Shown here piece by piece: positions 4,403 to 55,000 of a stretch of DNA of 64,000 bases. The stretch lies in contig NW_019217830.1 in the NCBI RefSeq assembly GCF_002571385.2, forward strand, positions 150,375 through 214,374. The letters are read 5' to 3'. A model generated the notes under the pieces. It was not told the DNA's origin, did not search any database, and saw only the letters and a list, made by a program, of their open reading frames with translations. Origin of the DNA: Stylophora pistillata. Taxonomy: Eukaryota. The position numbers and the translations under genes are program-made. Numbering within the stretch: position 1 is the first letter of the stretch; each line of letters starts with the position of its first letter.

Positions 4403-7400
4403 ATGGCAACAGTGAAAGATGAGAAATATTCACCTCAGTCCTTAGAGTGCCCTATCTGCGAGAACATCTTCAGCGATCCGAAAATCTTGCAATGTCTTCA
4501 CTCGTTCTGCCGGAAATGTCTGGAGAGTTACGACGTAATCGGGGCAGGGACCAACTCGATCGTCTGTCCCCTCTGCCGAAAGCTGACTCCAATTCCGTCC
4601 GAGGGAGTTCACATTCTCCCGAGCAACTTCCTTCTGACAAACGCGTTGGATCATTTGTCAGTCAAATCAAGCAAAGAGTATACTCTTCACTGCACAAACT
4701 GCGAAGACGAAGCAGCGGCGACGTCCCGATGTCTGGAGTGCGCCGAGTTTCTGTGCTCGAACTGCGTTTTGGCTCACCGACGAATACGGGTGACGAAGGA
4801 CCACCGCATCCTGTCGCTTGACACACTGCAAGCCGACAAACAGACTCTTCATCGTCCCTCTTTCTGCGAACAACATACGGACGAGATGTTCATGTTTTAC
4901 TGTGTGCCCTGCGACTGTCTAATCTGCCGGGAATGCACAATTCTTGATCATCGAGGACATAAGTATACAGGTATGACTGTAAATGAAGACGAAGTATAAT
5001 AGCTGACTTCCCATTCCTCTATATTCCTCTTCCTGAAATCATCTTTCGTTTTAAACTGAATAGGTCAGAAATTCATAAAGTTTTTTATTGAATTCTTGTA
5101 AATTTCAGTGTGTTTTCAACATTACAAATCTTTTTCGGAAATCATTTCAAGTATCAAAAACGCACCTTTTGAGTTGAAAGACCAGATTAAAGTTACCGTG
5201 TGGATCTGTCACTGAGATGAAATTTAACTTTCCAAGAGGTTAAGGAAAGTCGCTAGAATAACTTTATTCCTGTCAAGAGGCTACTTAAGCGCCTTTCAAA
5301 CTCAAAGAAAACGGTTTAATTAAAACTTAAATTTCAATAAAACGTGAATAGGGGAGGCTATTTGCTTAAATTATCGTAAATATTGACCCGCATAAAAAAA
5401 AATTGTTTAGCCAAACATCACAGAACACCTTTTCAAAAGTCATCAACAGGTTATGACAGTAGAGACATGCAATAGTCAAAAGAGCACCAGCTACAGCAGC
5501 TTGTGGTCAGATAGAGGAGATTAAAACAGGTACAACTGGTCTAAAATTTTCTAACTTTTCTCTGAACGAAAAGGAATTTCTTCTTTTGAATTGAGATTAA
5601 AATGAAGAATTGAATAGAATCTCCTACTTTGAATCTAATTGAGAGGACTTATGGGCTGAATCTTCTCTTAACTTTTGCAAATACATATGTTAGGCTCGTT
5701 TGAGACAATTATGTCAAATAAAATTGATAGGTGGGGCGTAATGAATAAACACTCTCCGCTCAGTTAAGCCTGGACTCTAAGATGAGACATGACGTCACTC
5801 CTTCCTAAACTTCGCGCGAACAACTACGAAAGAGAAAGAGCGCCTAGGAACAAACCATTTACAGATAATTGAGAAATGGTATGCTGCAATGCTTTCCCTA
5901 AGTGCACCAAAGGGATAGAATGATATATTCGGCAATTTTTAGGAAAAATGCTTGGTAATGCAGTCGAACTTGTATTAAAGCGGCCACCCACAGGGAATAG
6001 CGGTATATTCGCTTAGTGCAAGTTGAGCGAGGTTCCACCTAAACTCGCTAAAAAATACAGCTAACATTGATTTCAGAAGAGGAAAATGAATTCGAAGTTA
6101 CCTGAAAGATTTTTCATAGTTAAATTTAAACTCAAAGTTGTCGTTTCTTTTTGGAGAGTTTTTCATAGTTCTGATTAAGTGGTTCTAGCTTTAAGTGACC
6201 ATTCAATACGGGTGAAAAACAATACAAAAAGGCCGTTGGGACTCAGTAAAGGGTGACCACGACCGCTTAATAGAGGTGACTGAAATTAAAGTGATTAAGG
6301 GGGAACAAATTTTATAACATAACCAAAGGAAAGTGCGCGCTCTGATTGGTCAATTTAGCGTCCCCCATTTGCCCATGGGTGTACGCTGCTGACGTGAGCA
6401 AATGTAAAGACTATTTTTCCGCGGGCGCTTGTTTTTTCTGGTCACGTCAGATTTGTTAAATAAAAGGGGAACTCTTTAGCTAAAATGTATCAATGTTATA
6501 TTATAAAACAAATGGTAAACACCACAGCGTACACTATTGAGTTATGGATGCACTTGGGAGGTTTGCTAAGCACTCAAGAAGCTAGAGTCGCTATCGGCTA
6601 TCGCCTCGAGCGACTCTTCCGCTTCCTCCGTGCTTAGCAACCTCCTGCGTCCATCCATAACTCAATAGTGTACCCTGTGGTGTTTACCATTTGTTAACGA
6701 GCTTGGACAACCGACCGCTTAAGATGGGGTTACCGCTTAATACAGCGTAGCTTAATACAGGTTCGAGTGCACCTTTTTTTACAACTTAATCTCAAAAAAA
6801 AATCTTCTAGGTCTAAAAGAAGCACTCGAAGAAAGAAAGATTCTTATAGACGAGCGTCTTAAATTCTGCATCGAAGAGAAGATTCCTCCTGTACACGATG
6901 CAGTGCACGAGGTGAAGACCATGGCAGCTAAGCTACGTGCACGTGCAGAAGCTGTCAAAAGTGAGATATGTGGCACGGCGGAAGAATGCGTGAAGCGTAT
7001 TGTCAGCCGCAAACAAGAAATACTGGCGAGGGTAAGTGGGTGACTATGGGAACCCCATGGCTAAGAAAGTATGGTTACCCAACAACACCATTGAAAAAAA
7101 TTTAGTTGTGACGCGAGAGTAGGTCCTTATTATGAAGAACTGTATTTCACAATCACAAAACCTCTAAGCCACGAGCTCCAAACTTCGAATTGAAAGAGAA
7201 ACGATCCTCTTTCGCATCTGAATGCGTTATTTCATTTTACTCTGCAACTTGCAATGATAGGAACCTTACTTCACGGACAATCAATACTTTTCTTGGAATG
7301 ATGTTAAAATGGCGAGAAATACTTATCAAAAAATTGAAACGCTTGTACACTTTAGTCTCCTCAATAGAAAAACAAAAAATAACAAGAAATGCTAATTCAA

Positions 7401-52000: not shown

Positions 52001-55000
52001 TGCAAATACCGTGTGATATTTATACTCATCTATGGTGTTATTTGTACTCGTCTAGGTGTAGTTGGATAATCAAAATACATACATTCATGAATACCTACTA
52101 TACTGAACAGCGTACCATAAAGGATCTCTTTTTCTGTGACAGAAGTAAATTTATAGAAGGTTAACATTATTTACAGACATTTAGAAATATTAGATTAAAT
52201 ATAAGATGTTAAATTTCAGTTCTGACCGTCCACCATACTGTGTGCTGTATAGATTTCTTTGTAGGTTTGAGAAACCTCTAAGATTTTAGTTGGAAACAAA
52301 TGTAGGCTTCAAACTACAAGAACATTTTATTTTGATTTGCTGCCTTCATTGTAGGTGTACTGCCTGTTATGAAATTTTTAATCAGGGGGAGGAAGAGAGG
52401 TGGGCTATTTGAGATTGGGGCCTTGTTTTGACAAGAGCAGTACCTAAAATGTCTTAAGTAATGCATTAGTATATAATTTTTTAAAATTGTGCTGCAGGTA
52501 AAGAGCATGGCGTTGGAATCTTTGTATCTCTTGTTTCACGGGGTTCACAAGCAGATATTGTTGGTTTGAAGGTACTGGTTCACTTACATGCAAACCTACA
52601 GTATGGCTTCCTTTGTTGTTGTGTTTGGGAAATCATTGCATCCCTTTGTGTGGCATTTCTTCATTTGTAGCTGTCCATACATTGTGTTTGTATTGGATTC
52701 CACAGCACATCTTTCTAATGAAACAATTTGGAAAAAAAAGAAATTGTCTCATTCAAGGCTTAAGTTTAGATAGTTGTATAATAATTGTGTTTCTATTAAA
52801 TTTAGAGCCTTGGCTAGTATATTTACATGTAGCAGTTGTAGTTTCAAATGACTTTAGACATTCAATATTTTCAAACTAGTTTGATTCATGTTACTTTATT
52901 TCAAGAATGTAGAAATGCAACTGTAGCTTAGGACAAAAAAAAGAAAAGTCTAGTTTCAAATTATTTTGTGATTAAATTCATTTTGAAATGTAACACTTTA
53001 CATCATTTGTTAATTCTCTCTTACAGGCTGGTGATGAGATTTTAAGTATTAATGGATTATACCTTGGGGAAGCTACACATGGAGAGGTAGTCAACATCTT
53101 AAGGTCACACAGTAATCTTCTCCTCAAAGTAAGAAGTAAGTATTTAGCATTGATACTGTGTTTTACACTCATGACAAATGGCACTAACCCTAAGCTCAAA
53201 ATTTCCTCTCTCTCATGATCTACTCATGCAAAACGCATTTAAACACCCAGGTAAAGAGAGGCATTGTGAGAGTAATAATTAAAGTGTCTTCCCTAAGACC
53301 ACAACACGATGTCCTCAGCCAGGACTCAAACCTGGACCACTCAATCTGTAGTCGAGAACACTAACCATGAGGCCAGTGCACCTCCCACTAATCCGAGCAG
53401 TATGCAGTCACATATAGACTGAGTACTAACCATGAGGCTAGTGCACCTCCCACTAATCTTAGCAGTATGCAGTCACATATAGACTGAGTGCTAACCATGA
53501 GGCTAGTGCACCTCCCACTAATCCTAGCAGTATGCAGTCACATATAGACTGAGTACTAACCATGAGGCNNNNNNNNNNNNNNNNNNNNNNNNNNNNNNNN
53601 NNNNNNNNNNNNNNNNNNNNNNNNNNNNNNNNNNNNNNNNNNNNNNNNNNNNNNNNNNNNNNNNNNNNNNNNNNNNNNNNNNNNNNNNNNNNNNNNNNNN
53701 NNNNNNNNNNNNNNNNNNNNNNNNNNNNNNNNNNNNNNNNNNNNNNNNNNNNNNNNNNNNNNNNNNNNNNNNNNNNNNNNNNNNNNNNNNNNNNNNNNNN
53801 NNNNNNNNNNNNNNNNNNNNNNNNNNNNNNNNNNNNNNNNNNNNNNNNNNNNNNNNNNNNNNNNNNNNNNNNNNNNNNNNNNNNNNNNNNNNNNNNNNNN
53901 NNNNNNNNNNNNNNNNNNNNNNNATATTTAGTAAATAAACCCCTTCGGGCGGCTGGTATGTCGGCTGATAATGTCCGCGGCTGAGAGATTGTCCGAAAAA
54001 TGAATATTTGGCCGAGAAGCGAAGCTTCGAGGGCAAATATGAAATTTTGAGGACAATGTCTCAGCCAAGGACATTATTAGCCGACATACCAGCAAGCCAG
54101 AACGGGTTTAATTATTTTATAACCCTTCCATTAATTTTCACATCGCAATTAAACTGCTCGTAAACACAGTAAAAAAGCCAGTGGAGATCTGAAGGCGAAT
54201 GCGCGTGATTGACGCAAGCAAAAAAACAAACGAGTTTGGTTTCCTTACATATAAATAAGAGAACGGAAAAGTTGAAACTCTTGTGTTGACTATGTTTCTT
54301 TTTCACGGAAAAAATCGGAGGACAAATATCGACATGGACGGGGGTTATTGCGTGATAACTGTCCTGTGATTTCGCACCACGTGACGTAAAGTAACCAATA
54401 AAGTCGCGCCAAAATTAATGAGTGGGTTATAATGTCGAATAATCCCCGAGACGAAGTCGAGGGGATTATTCGACGATATTCACCTCGCCTTCGGCAAATA
54501 ATTGTTAAATACAATATCACCCCTGAAATCAACATTAAGGTCAGGAGAATAAAGGACATGGTCACCAACTAAACAAGCTCTTGATTGTCAAACAAATTCT
54601 CCTTGTTAGCACCTTAGGAAATGTATAGAGAACAGTATGGAGAATATGCATACTGATGTTAGGGTGGAAAGGGTTGGGGGTGCTTAGCGAAGCGAAGCAT
54701 TGCTAAATAAATGTAATCCCCAATATTGTTGGCACTCAACCAAAAAAACTTACTCTGAATGTTTTCCACATTCATACAAACATATTTTTGTTTGTGGTGA
54801 CACTCGGTCAATTTTCTGCTTTTTTCGTGCTGTCAAGTGTTAGAAATGGAATACCAGGCAAAGAAGGACTGTTCATTATCTCAGTGACATCTGGCTCATT
54901 GGCTGACAAGACTGGAGCACGAGTAAGTCACGATGTTTTTTTTTTCGAAAGTACACATAAAAAGTATACGACTAAATAGAAGTAATGAAAAATTGAAGCA

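Follow-up and report, generated by a model that had tools for sequence, protein, structure and literature searches.

The window, a 64,000-nt stretch of Stylophora pistillata DNA, harbors five small elements (E1-E5), which raise the question of what kind of transposon carries an internal junction complementary to both of its own ends, and how such a transposon moves. The original prediction described them as sharing an L...L'-R'...R layout while being largely unrelated in sequence. We recovered this layout in all five cases, with ends shifted by a few bases, and pairwise comparisons yielded no similarity with E < 0.07. Read on a common strand, all five have the form TTA...TAA, with a 5' hairpin (L...L') followed by the internal junction and the body (R'...R) (Table 1).

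Four elements (E1, E3, E4 and E5) are heads of high-copy families, the E1 family having 2177 first-look candidates in the genome, of which 40 were scored. The best copies of E1 and of E4 resemble each other at 99-100%. E2 is an old decayed copy: its relatives are only partial (55 candidates, 68-91% identity), and a pattern search of its 30 loci for younger relatives returned the window copy alone. E4 adjoins the right end of E3 with zero bases between them. E5, whose left flank is an N gap, is found at the identical host position in loci L122, L126 and L142; it extends to 54432 as predicted, but the stretch after it proved to be the remainder of a sixth element, the host of the E5 insertion.

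Table 1. Coordinates (positions in the window), strands and parts of the elements.
Feature	Position	Strand	Description
E1	6312..6697	-	Non-autonomous element, very probably CryptonA; 386 nt; inside an intron of a TRIM-NHL-type gene
E1 5' hairpin (L...L')	6507..6697	-	Tandem GA/GA mismatches; internal junction 6507/6506
E1 body (R'...R)	6312..6506	-	CCAAT 6345-6349, likely a promoter remnant
E2	41390..41637	-	Old and decayed, with the layout of the others; hairpin 41499-41637, body 41390-41498, CCAAT 41423-41427
E3	43886..44162	+	Hairpin 43886-43983, body 43984-44162, CCAAT 44104-44108
E4	44163..44465	+	Hairpin 44163-44273, body 44274-44465, CCAAT 44420-44424
E5	53928..54432	+	Hairpin 53928-54116, body 54117-54432, CCAAT 54395-54399
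Sixth element of the same kind	54433..54508	-	Hairpin remainder, host of E5

The predicted complementarity of the junction to both termini holds for the right end and for the left end from base 3 onward; the first two bases, TT, are part of the element but lie outside the junction coverage. For the window copies of E1-E5, agreement of the junction with the left end (counted from base 3) is 20, 15, 16, 17 and 16 of 20 positions, and with the right end 11, 8, 13, 7 and 11 of 14 positions, respectively, the low E4 value being due to a 3-bp deletion in the window copy. In the family majority strings, 12-14 of 14 and 11-12 of 12 positions pair between a junction and its own ends, compared with just 5-9 of 14 and 5-9 of 12 for the ends of other families. 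The overlap of the junction with the ends differs in the families L183/L184/L202 and L192/L206, hence a TT bulge may not be general. A strict layout detector produced two matches in the window (E1 and E3), two in random stretches totalling 348 kb, and 0, 1 and 0 in three Markov controls of the latter; its first version had given one match in the window and none in 10 shuffles. The CCAAT box noticed near one terminus is common to the five elements, its start lying 38-59 nt away from the right end. It is most likely a leftover promoter of a recombinase gene and not a transposition signal, since it sits upstream of that gene in long versions of the elements (see below).

Comparison of filled and empty sites confirmed the predicted lack of a target site duplication (TSD). 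The net length change was zero in most spanning matches, which covered 10 loci at six host positions after seven of 19 spanning queries (tandem, self or poor) had been left out; L023, read by eye, also showed no net change; E4 has a single empty site, read by eye; and one E3 copy (L095) gave +1 instead of zero. Both TT and TAA depart with the element. As a target the elements use a dyad, TAN^NNNNNN-NTA, and insertion always occurs at the left edge of its 6-bp spacer. Among 73 sites, T was found at -3 in 64, A at -2 in 69, W at +7 in 67, T at +8 in 60 and A at +9 in 50. Spacer homology is limited to T at +1 (41/73), with no enrichment at +2 (26/73, p=0.24). Seventy nine of 88 copies start with TT, and in all 79 the whole spacer is on the right flank, with the first bases of the element on the left, as expected for the product of an exchange of one strand. 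As TT is present in every such copy and yet lies outside the junction, the ends are transferred and not re-copied from the junction. The flanks at the TTA and TAA ends are unrelated, direct repeats of 4-6 bp are absent from the termini, and apart from TTA/TAA and a few arm bases the two ends are different. Neither an empty allele nor a right-to-left joint was seen among the joints listed from read contigs of four runs for positions 41000-46500, or among those listed from four runs for the young E1 copy L050, the signal being swamped by other copies in both cases. Runs labelled coral metagenome contain small portions of the window, which says nothing about habitat.

CryptonA-type tyrosine-recombinase (DUF3504) genes are embedded in this layout at 10 of 60 loci, compared with none of 55 controls (p=0.0014), when 15 window tiles (0/15) and 40 random stretches (0/40) are pooled; taken by themselves, the window tiles give no significant difference (p=0.2). 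The remaining 50 recombinase stretches did not pass the strict test for the layout, and many of those inspected are decayed or gapped. An initial long-range detector had yielded no recombinase elements because its filters were too strict, and was replaced by a second version. Both ends of E1, E4 and E5 are shared, at 85-98% identity, with degenerate recombinase-coding elements, in agreement with the prediction that the window elements are non-autonomous. E4 is 95% identical to L316 over nt 66-149 and 91% over nt 149-306; E5 is 98% identical to L318 (nt 1-121) and 91.5% (nt 298-509); E1 is 85% identical to L286 (nt 38-294) and 89% (nt 293-383), and both its ends also match the recombinase-coding L232. 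Single internal breakpoints lie near nt 293 in E1 and nt 149 in E4. For E3, a search via L216, whose hairpin is 81% alike over 43 nt, gave three matches, two of them new, and no direct parent among the ends examined; for E2, neither a recombinase-coding parent nor an empty site was found.

The long versions span 1.4-2.6 kb (1.87 kb in L316 and 1.45 kb in L318) and encode the recombinase within the second half. Pfam assigned DUF3504 (E 1e-27) and Phage_integrase (E 5e-13) to L183, while L319, which matches the right end of E4, exceeded the DUF3504 cut-off; L318, L313, L286 and L232 remained below it, and L316, weak in Pfam, is 42% identical to the L200 recombinase (E 1e-36). Of the catalytic R-H-R-Y tetrad, R, HxxR, H and Y motifs are visible by eye in the L183 frame and only in part in the direct parents; each parent examined is broken, and the analysis turned up no intact recombinase gene carrying these ends. 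In the 14 of 24 frames from L183 and L232 that were scanned, Pfam returned DUF3504, Phage_integrase, QRICH1 and one weak unrelated match, and no reverse transcriptase (RT), gag or DDE transposase was detected in the scanned frames of the long versions. The recombinase gene points toward the hairpin in some families and away from it in others.

We conclude that the five elements are very probably non-autonomous CryptonA DNA transposons: E1, E4 and E5 because both their ends match recombinase-coding long versions, and E2 and E3 because they share the layout. The assignment to CryptonA is based on DUF3504, a domain derived from animal Crypton recombinases (PMC3212892). The original prediction of a DIRS- or Crypton-like class is thus borne out as regards Cryptons and tyrosine-recombinase mobility, but the elements display the end design of known CryptonA and are neither a new class nor DIRS, from which they differ in length, domains and motif strand.

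Further features indicate that one strand of the hairpin is distinguished. When one representative was taken from each of 12 clusters, stem mismatches included 37 A·G and no C·T, with A·G polarity up in 10 clusters, down in none and tied in two, although the clusters are related by descent and these counts are not fully independent. The representatives contain 15 tandem GA/GA pairs, and GA/GA or its complement occurs in 10 of 16 Crypton-type hairpins versus one of 22 other hairpins. Tandem GA in the context CGAG forms stable sheared pairs (PMC10085684), and mini-hairpins of the sequence GCGNAGC are highly stable in DNA, more so than in RNA (PMC13037366). Of 138 copies, 121 have a GNA-type tip on the same strand, five have it flipped and 12 are unclear. 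Mismatches and loop tips are both polarised to the strand running from the left end to the right end, which in the parents of E1, E4 and E5 is opposite to the recombinase transcript. There are exceptions: the L206 hairpin carries two TC/TC tandems, that is, the opposite polarity; the tip is flipped in the host hairpin at 54433-54508 and in L232; and the bottom strand folds lower in two of the 12 clusters and also for E3. The asymmetry between G·T and A·C mismatches is flat (6 vs 5). At the sequence level, a preferred folding strand with conserved unpaired features is present, with the exceptions just given.

The self-pairing ends, the one-strand folding motifs and the scar-free insertion sites suggest that the tyrosine recombinase probably acts on one folded single strand, with a single strand exchange that is resolved by replication. 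The left-to-right strand would fold by pairing L with L' and R with R', bringing both ends side by side on the junction and creating a double-stranded recombination site that bears a 2-nt TT bulge at the cut. A single strand exchange would then peel out a closed single-stranded dumbbell, and one exchange between the dumbbell and a chromosomal target would give a Holliday junction carrying the element on one strand only. Replication would resolve it into a filled and an empty chromatid, and the copy number would rise as the other strand of the donor retains the element. Single exchange followed by replication has a precedent in integrons (PMC3458562). The single-stranded circle of the original prediction fares accordingly: a folded single-stranded form is the best reading of the sequences, but neither a circle nor a folded intermediate was observed, and the one-sided products could also arise from two exchanges with biased repair, which counts against the folded strand. 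Going one step further, we lean slightly towards the view that animal CryptonA are eukaryotic counterparts of integron cassettes, which carry an internal mirror of their joined ends and would be pasted as a dumbbell by a single exchange.

The strongest competitor, which we regard as unlikely, keeps the family assignment and assumes a double-stranded circle formed by two exchanges, with the junction as a spare inverted site and the hairpin serving protein binding, cruciform extrusion or expression control. Such a circle is the published Crypton model (Goodwin et al. as cited in PMC3212892); the dyad target, the 6-bp spacer and the lack of a TSD would suit any tyrosine recombinase, and the two gene orientations relative to the hairpin are expected from inversion at an inverted site. 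Against it, short direct repeats are absent and spacer homology is slight; a mismatched spacer predicts two products but only one kind is seen; strand-polar GA motifs are meaningless in duplex DNA; and all 11 unselected E1 copies that include a body show hairpin and body in a single orientation.

Use of the folded strand for copying appears still less probable. Here a nick would be followed by hairpin-primed strand displacement of the rolling-hairpin or resolvase-like type and by integration of a double-stranded or hairpin-ended copy. This scheme requires the identical one-strand fold, single-stranded phages have mini-hairpins as marks of their priming sites (PMC13037366), and palindromic body-hairpin-body triples occur in eight of the 30 top E1 loci. 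These triples are absent among the 11 unselected E1 copies, however, and of the seven loci listed four touch N gaps and three lie in local duplications, so we set them aside as probable assembly artefacts. Copying would also leave the flush pairing of both ends at the cut position unexplained.

A DIRS-like route, with an RNA copy reverse-transcribed in trans and the internal complementary region splinting and rebuilding the ends, is very improbable. The junction does formally resemble the DIRS internal complementary region, which is the complement of the beginning of the left end and of the final part of the right end (PMC6681497), and the lack of a TSD agrees with this route. However, the 1.4-2.6 kb parents have only recombinase-type domains in the scanned frames; a CCAAT-driven transcript would represent the other strand and miss the final 40-60 nt, and only about 12-21 of these are stored in the junction; the 5' TT would have no template; and the tips are DNA-type mini-hairpins.

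Finally, the reading of each element as two adjoining ordinary DDE MITEs with a TA or TTAA duplication, suggested by the TTA...TAA ends and by inverted ends on each half, is almost certainly wrong, as empty sites without gain refute it for E1, E3 and E5 and rule out a TA duplication, long versions carry the tyrosine recombinase in the second half, and about 1.2 Mb of unselected DNA examined for each family contained no full-length lone half (with few copies for E3-E5), so that the predicted distinction from ordinary MITEs stands.

Recombination on a folded strand thus remains our preferred reading. In the accessible text of the cited literature, neither terminal repeats nor a target rule are described for animal Cryptons, whose mechanism is borrowed from fungal elements. 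For the young, abundant families studied here the ends are exact, and a target consensus as well as a cut position is available, so the proposal can be tested with short oligonucleotides. If it is true, animals share a recombination route known from bacterial integrons and the CTX phage (PMC3458562) and possess a copy-increasing transposition route driven by a tyrosine recombinase on folded single-stranded DNA. It would also bear on the origin of the DIRS internal complementary region, for which a common origin may be offered, and on the former binding targets of the vertebrate Crypton-derived DUF3504 proteins ZMYM2-4, QRICH1 and KCTD1. The layout itself is a practical classification rule for many unclassified hairpin repeats.

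The ends of Eulor5A/B, Eulor6A-E, Crypton-N1_SSa as well as CryptonA-N2_SSa presumably resemble those of the present elements. These repeats, compared here by description only, are likewise non-autonomous Cryptons recognised by similar termini, and the accessible text of the source describes no internal junction or mechanism for them (Kojima 2018, PMC5753468). The elements resemble the CryptonA of Kojima and Jurka (2011, PMC3212892) in having a DUF3504 recombinase as the sole gene found, in the size of about 2 kb (1248-2289 bp listed for CryptonA), in cnidarian occurrence, in the lack of a TSD and in short non-autonomous derivatives that far outnumber coding copies. They lack the 4-6 bp direct repeats through which circular DNA is excised in the model cited there; terminal direct repeats of this length belong to the CryptonF/S type and are not given as a CryptonA feature in the accessible text of that source. 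Glomhoppers, which belong to the CryptonA lineage and occur in fungi, also have a DUF3504 recombinase, but their terminal repeats are reported to be variable or poorly conserved and their boundaries hard to define (Krysinska et al. 2026, PMC13465315); hairpin, palindrome and circular are not mentioned in the accessible main text. Our search of the open literature, outside Repbase, Dfam and subscription journals, found neither this layout nor a single-strand Crypton model, while deposited entries or figures may describe the ends. DIRS elements are alike in an internal region complementary to both termini, a tyrosine recombinase and the lack of an ordinary TSD, but have gag, RT/RNase H and inverted terminal repeats (PMC6681497, PMC13465315), whereas no RT turned up in the present elements, neither end is an inverted copy of the other, and about 100-190 nt separate the junction from the left end. 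The integron attC site and the CTX phage combine a tyrosine recombinase acting on a folded strand, one preferred strand, one exchange and replication (Loot et al. 2012, PMC3458562). The attC system is bacterial and has one local hairpin per cassette and a fixed attI target, whereas the site of the present elements is built from two ends on an internal splint and their targets are degenerate and genome-wide; folded-strand recombination is experimentally established for integrons and is suggested here by the sequences of the CryptonA ends.

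The five small repeats E1–E5 (in window order; see the table) are real features and very probably new members of CryptonA. Each consists of a 5' hairpin (L...L') followed by a body (R'...R), with L'-R' forming an internal junction. When read on a common strand (minus for E1 and E2), all five start with TTA, end with TAA and carry CCAAT 38–59 nt ahead of the right end. First-look searches yielded 2177, 55, 1260, 1463 and 2060 candidates for E1 to E5, respectively, with 40 of each being scored. Thirty top loci were studied for each of E1, E4 and E5 and 29 for E3, so that the copy sets are biased to young, full copies; median identities to the family majority are 100% (E1), 95% (E3), 99% (E4) and 96% (E5). 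The ends are sharp, with flanks differing between copies. The junction is complementary to the entire right end and to the left end starting at base 3. The match to both termini, noted at the outset, holds family by family: 12–14/14 and 11–12/12 positions are paired with the family's own ends versus 5–9/14 and 5–9/12 with the ends of other families. E2 is decayed, its match being partial (15/20 and 8/14). In DNA folding, the window copies of E4 (z = -8.6) and E1 (z = -16.4) were ahead of all 100 shuffles, the first two T being unpaired in both predicted folds.

Hairpin and body form one unit. In approximately 1.2 Mb of DNA chosen without regard to the family, all 11 distinct E1 copies retaining most of the body have the hairpin joined to it at the junction, always the same way round; a check of unselected DNA on the same scale found, besides the window copies, two E3 copies and one E4 copy with the hairpin attached, and none of E5. 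Element fragments do occur, such as a 47-nt right end of E3 in L242, but no stand-alone full-length half was found in this unselected DNA. Palindromic body-hairpin-body triples were seen in eight of the 30 top E1 loci (577 bp; L037, L046, L051, L052, L053, L057, L059 and L060), with similar E5 forms at L123 and L131. Many of them touch N gaps or local duplications, and they are probably assembly artefacts rather than real rearrangements.

Seventy nine of 88 copies with clean flanks start with TT, the remaining nine being eight E1 triples and one E5 variant. Nineteen copies interrupt other repeats, whose uninterrupted versions served as empty sites. With the element taken as TTA...TAA, and with four tandem or self cases and three poor alignments dropped, the length change between filled and empty sites was 0 in most hits for ten loci (six host positions), likewise 0 for L023 as judged by eye, and +1 for L095. 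Therefore, insertion occurs without target duplication, in agreement with the initial impression from the sequence. The 73 de-duplicated sites have the consensus TAN^NNNNNN-NTA (T at -3 in 64, A at -2 in 69, W at +7 in 67, T at +8 in 60, A at +9 in 50). Tyrosine recombinases cut at the spacer edge. The products observed here are one-sided: the insertion point is the spacer edge, and the entire target spacer is always on the right side. Spacer homology is slight, with T at +1 in 41/73 (p=8e-6) and at +2 in 26/73 (p=0.24). The usual tyrosine-recombinase site, as outlined in PMC3212892, has inverted arms flanking a 6–8 bp spacer. The right end of an element resembles the left arm of the target, which explains nesting, including E3 abutting E4. 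At window position 54433 and in L122, L126 and L142, independent-looking insertions hit an identical base of a further Crypton-type element, and likewise in L100, L101 and L110; the families target one another's arms, building nests.

A DUF3504 search of the genome gave 91 matches, and 60 surrounding stretches were fetched. A hairpin plus an inverted-repeat-bounded body spanning the recombinase domain was detected in ten of these 60 stretches, versus 0/15 window tiles and 0/40 random stretches (p=0.0014 against the pooled controls, p=0.2 against window tiles alone); L232 and L224 are further cases found by eye. Direct parents, long recombinase-coding versions sharing the element ends, came from two further searches (50 loci) and were found for E1, E4 and E5. 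Their recombinase frames are broken, and the Pfam support varies between a score above the cut-off in L319 and a weak one in L316. No intact recombinase gene with these ends was found among the parents examined, and neither the DUF3504 nor the parent searches found a parent for E2 or E3. In all three parents the gene begins just inside the CCAAT box and is directed toward the hairpin; hence CCAAT is likely the recombinase gene promoter. Gene direction varies among coding families, being away from the hairpin in the L183 family.

Positions of the elements, their parents and other features (window coordinates unless a locus fetched from the same genome, L-number, is named)
Feature	Position	Strand	Remarks
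E1	6312-6697	-	
E2	41390-41637	-	
E3	43886-44162		
E4	44163-44465		
E5	53928-54432		
Host hairpin	54433-54508	-	Remainder of a sixth such element, carrying E5
E1 parent	L286		85% over 38-294, 89% over 293-383
E4 parent	L316		95% over nt 66-149, 91% over 149-306; spans 1.87 kb
E5 parent	L318		98% over 1-121, 91.5% over 298-509; junction lost
Long unbroken DUF3504 frame	L195:4768-6480	-	No hairpin layout detected around it; possibly domesticated gene
Long unbroken DUF3504 frame	L199:4373-5785	+	As for L195
TRIM-NHL-type gene	4343-9393	+	Domain search positive for RING, B-box, filamin and NHL; intron holds E1
Second TRIM-NHL-type gene	19529-23479	-	Convergent with the first; read by eye from frames
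Direct repeat, 627 bp	10301-10927, 11322-11948		99.5% identical, flanking an N gap; probably assembly duplication
Element of ~350 bp, lone copy	24646-24998		Terminal inverted repeats
Element of ~350 bp, cluster	30682-32074		Alternately inverted copies forming ~700-bp palindrome
Two long charged frames	33313-34947	-	Internal repetition; probably exons of one protein
Tandem array	59531-60069		Period ~69 bp, G-skewed stretch

The window belongs to a 398-Mb animal assembly. The palindrome-forming ~350-bp element had no match among the harvested Crypton hairpins.

The hairpins are polar. On the left-to-right strand, assigned from the layout independently of mismatches, the four majority hairpins contain 21 A·G and no C·T mismatches. 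One representative from each of 12 clusters (112 hairpins) gave 37 A·G and 0 C·T after a well-paired-stem filter, where each tandem enters the A·G total twice and the clusters are related, so that the true significance is below nominal; ten clusters lean to A·G, none to the opposite, and two tie. Tandem mismatches across clusters were GA/GA in 15 cases and TC/TC in two, a tandem being present in 10/16 hairpins of these clusters versus 1/22 other hairpins (random stretches and window). GA tandems read on the opposite strand are C·T mismatches. Of 138 copies, 121 have their tip (GCGAAGC, GCGTAGC and the like) on the left-to-right strand, five have it flipped and 12 are unclear. L206, L232 and the host hairpin depart from the polarity. 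According to two papers, tips of this type are exceptionally stable in DNA and far less so in RNA (PMC13037366), and tandem GA within CGAG forms sheared pairs (PMC10085684).

A folded single-strand mechanism is likely. The left-to-right strand, which might be freed as the lagging strand or through supercoiling, would fold by pairing of L with L' and of R with R', giving a duplex recombination site in which the two ends meet flush and the TT bulges out. The element arms are in register with the target: the left end has T9-A10 in E3, E4 and E5 as well as in several coding families, and T9-G10 in E1. The folded filled strand opposite the empty partner strand would be exactly the Holliday junction that a single strand exchange joining a closed dumbbell to the target leaves behind, and replication would then resolve it. 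No transposition intermediate was seen, and neither an empty allele nor a right-to-left joint stood among the joints listed for read contigs aligned over 41000-46500 and over the young E1 copy L050. Against generality of this junction geometry, the overlap with the ends is about 2 and about 5 bases, not 0, in two coding families (L183:3407-6042, L184 and L202; L192, L206 and L214). Movement as a duplex circle appears unlikely, copying primed by the hairpin is still more doubtful, and a DIRS-like RNA route is highly improbable. Pairing of two MITEs can practically be dismissed, since no full-length half stood alone in the unselected DNA and empty sites reveal no duplication.

CryptonA elements and their non-autonomous derivatives have been described, with terminal repeats not found in the animal elements (PMC3212892); Eulor5/6 were classed as Cryptons through terminal likeness (PMC5753468), and a 2026 fungal CryptonA paper keeps the direct-repeat model (PMC13465315). 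The literature searched (Repbase, Dfam and closed journals being outside its scope) yielded no paper that presents such a layout or has Cryptons moving as a single strand, and the end design, the target rule and the likely folded-strand mechanism are absent from it. In integron cassettes, replication has been shown to resolve the Holliday junction left by a single exchange (PMC3458562), whereas for the elements described here we infer such resolution.
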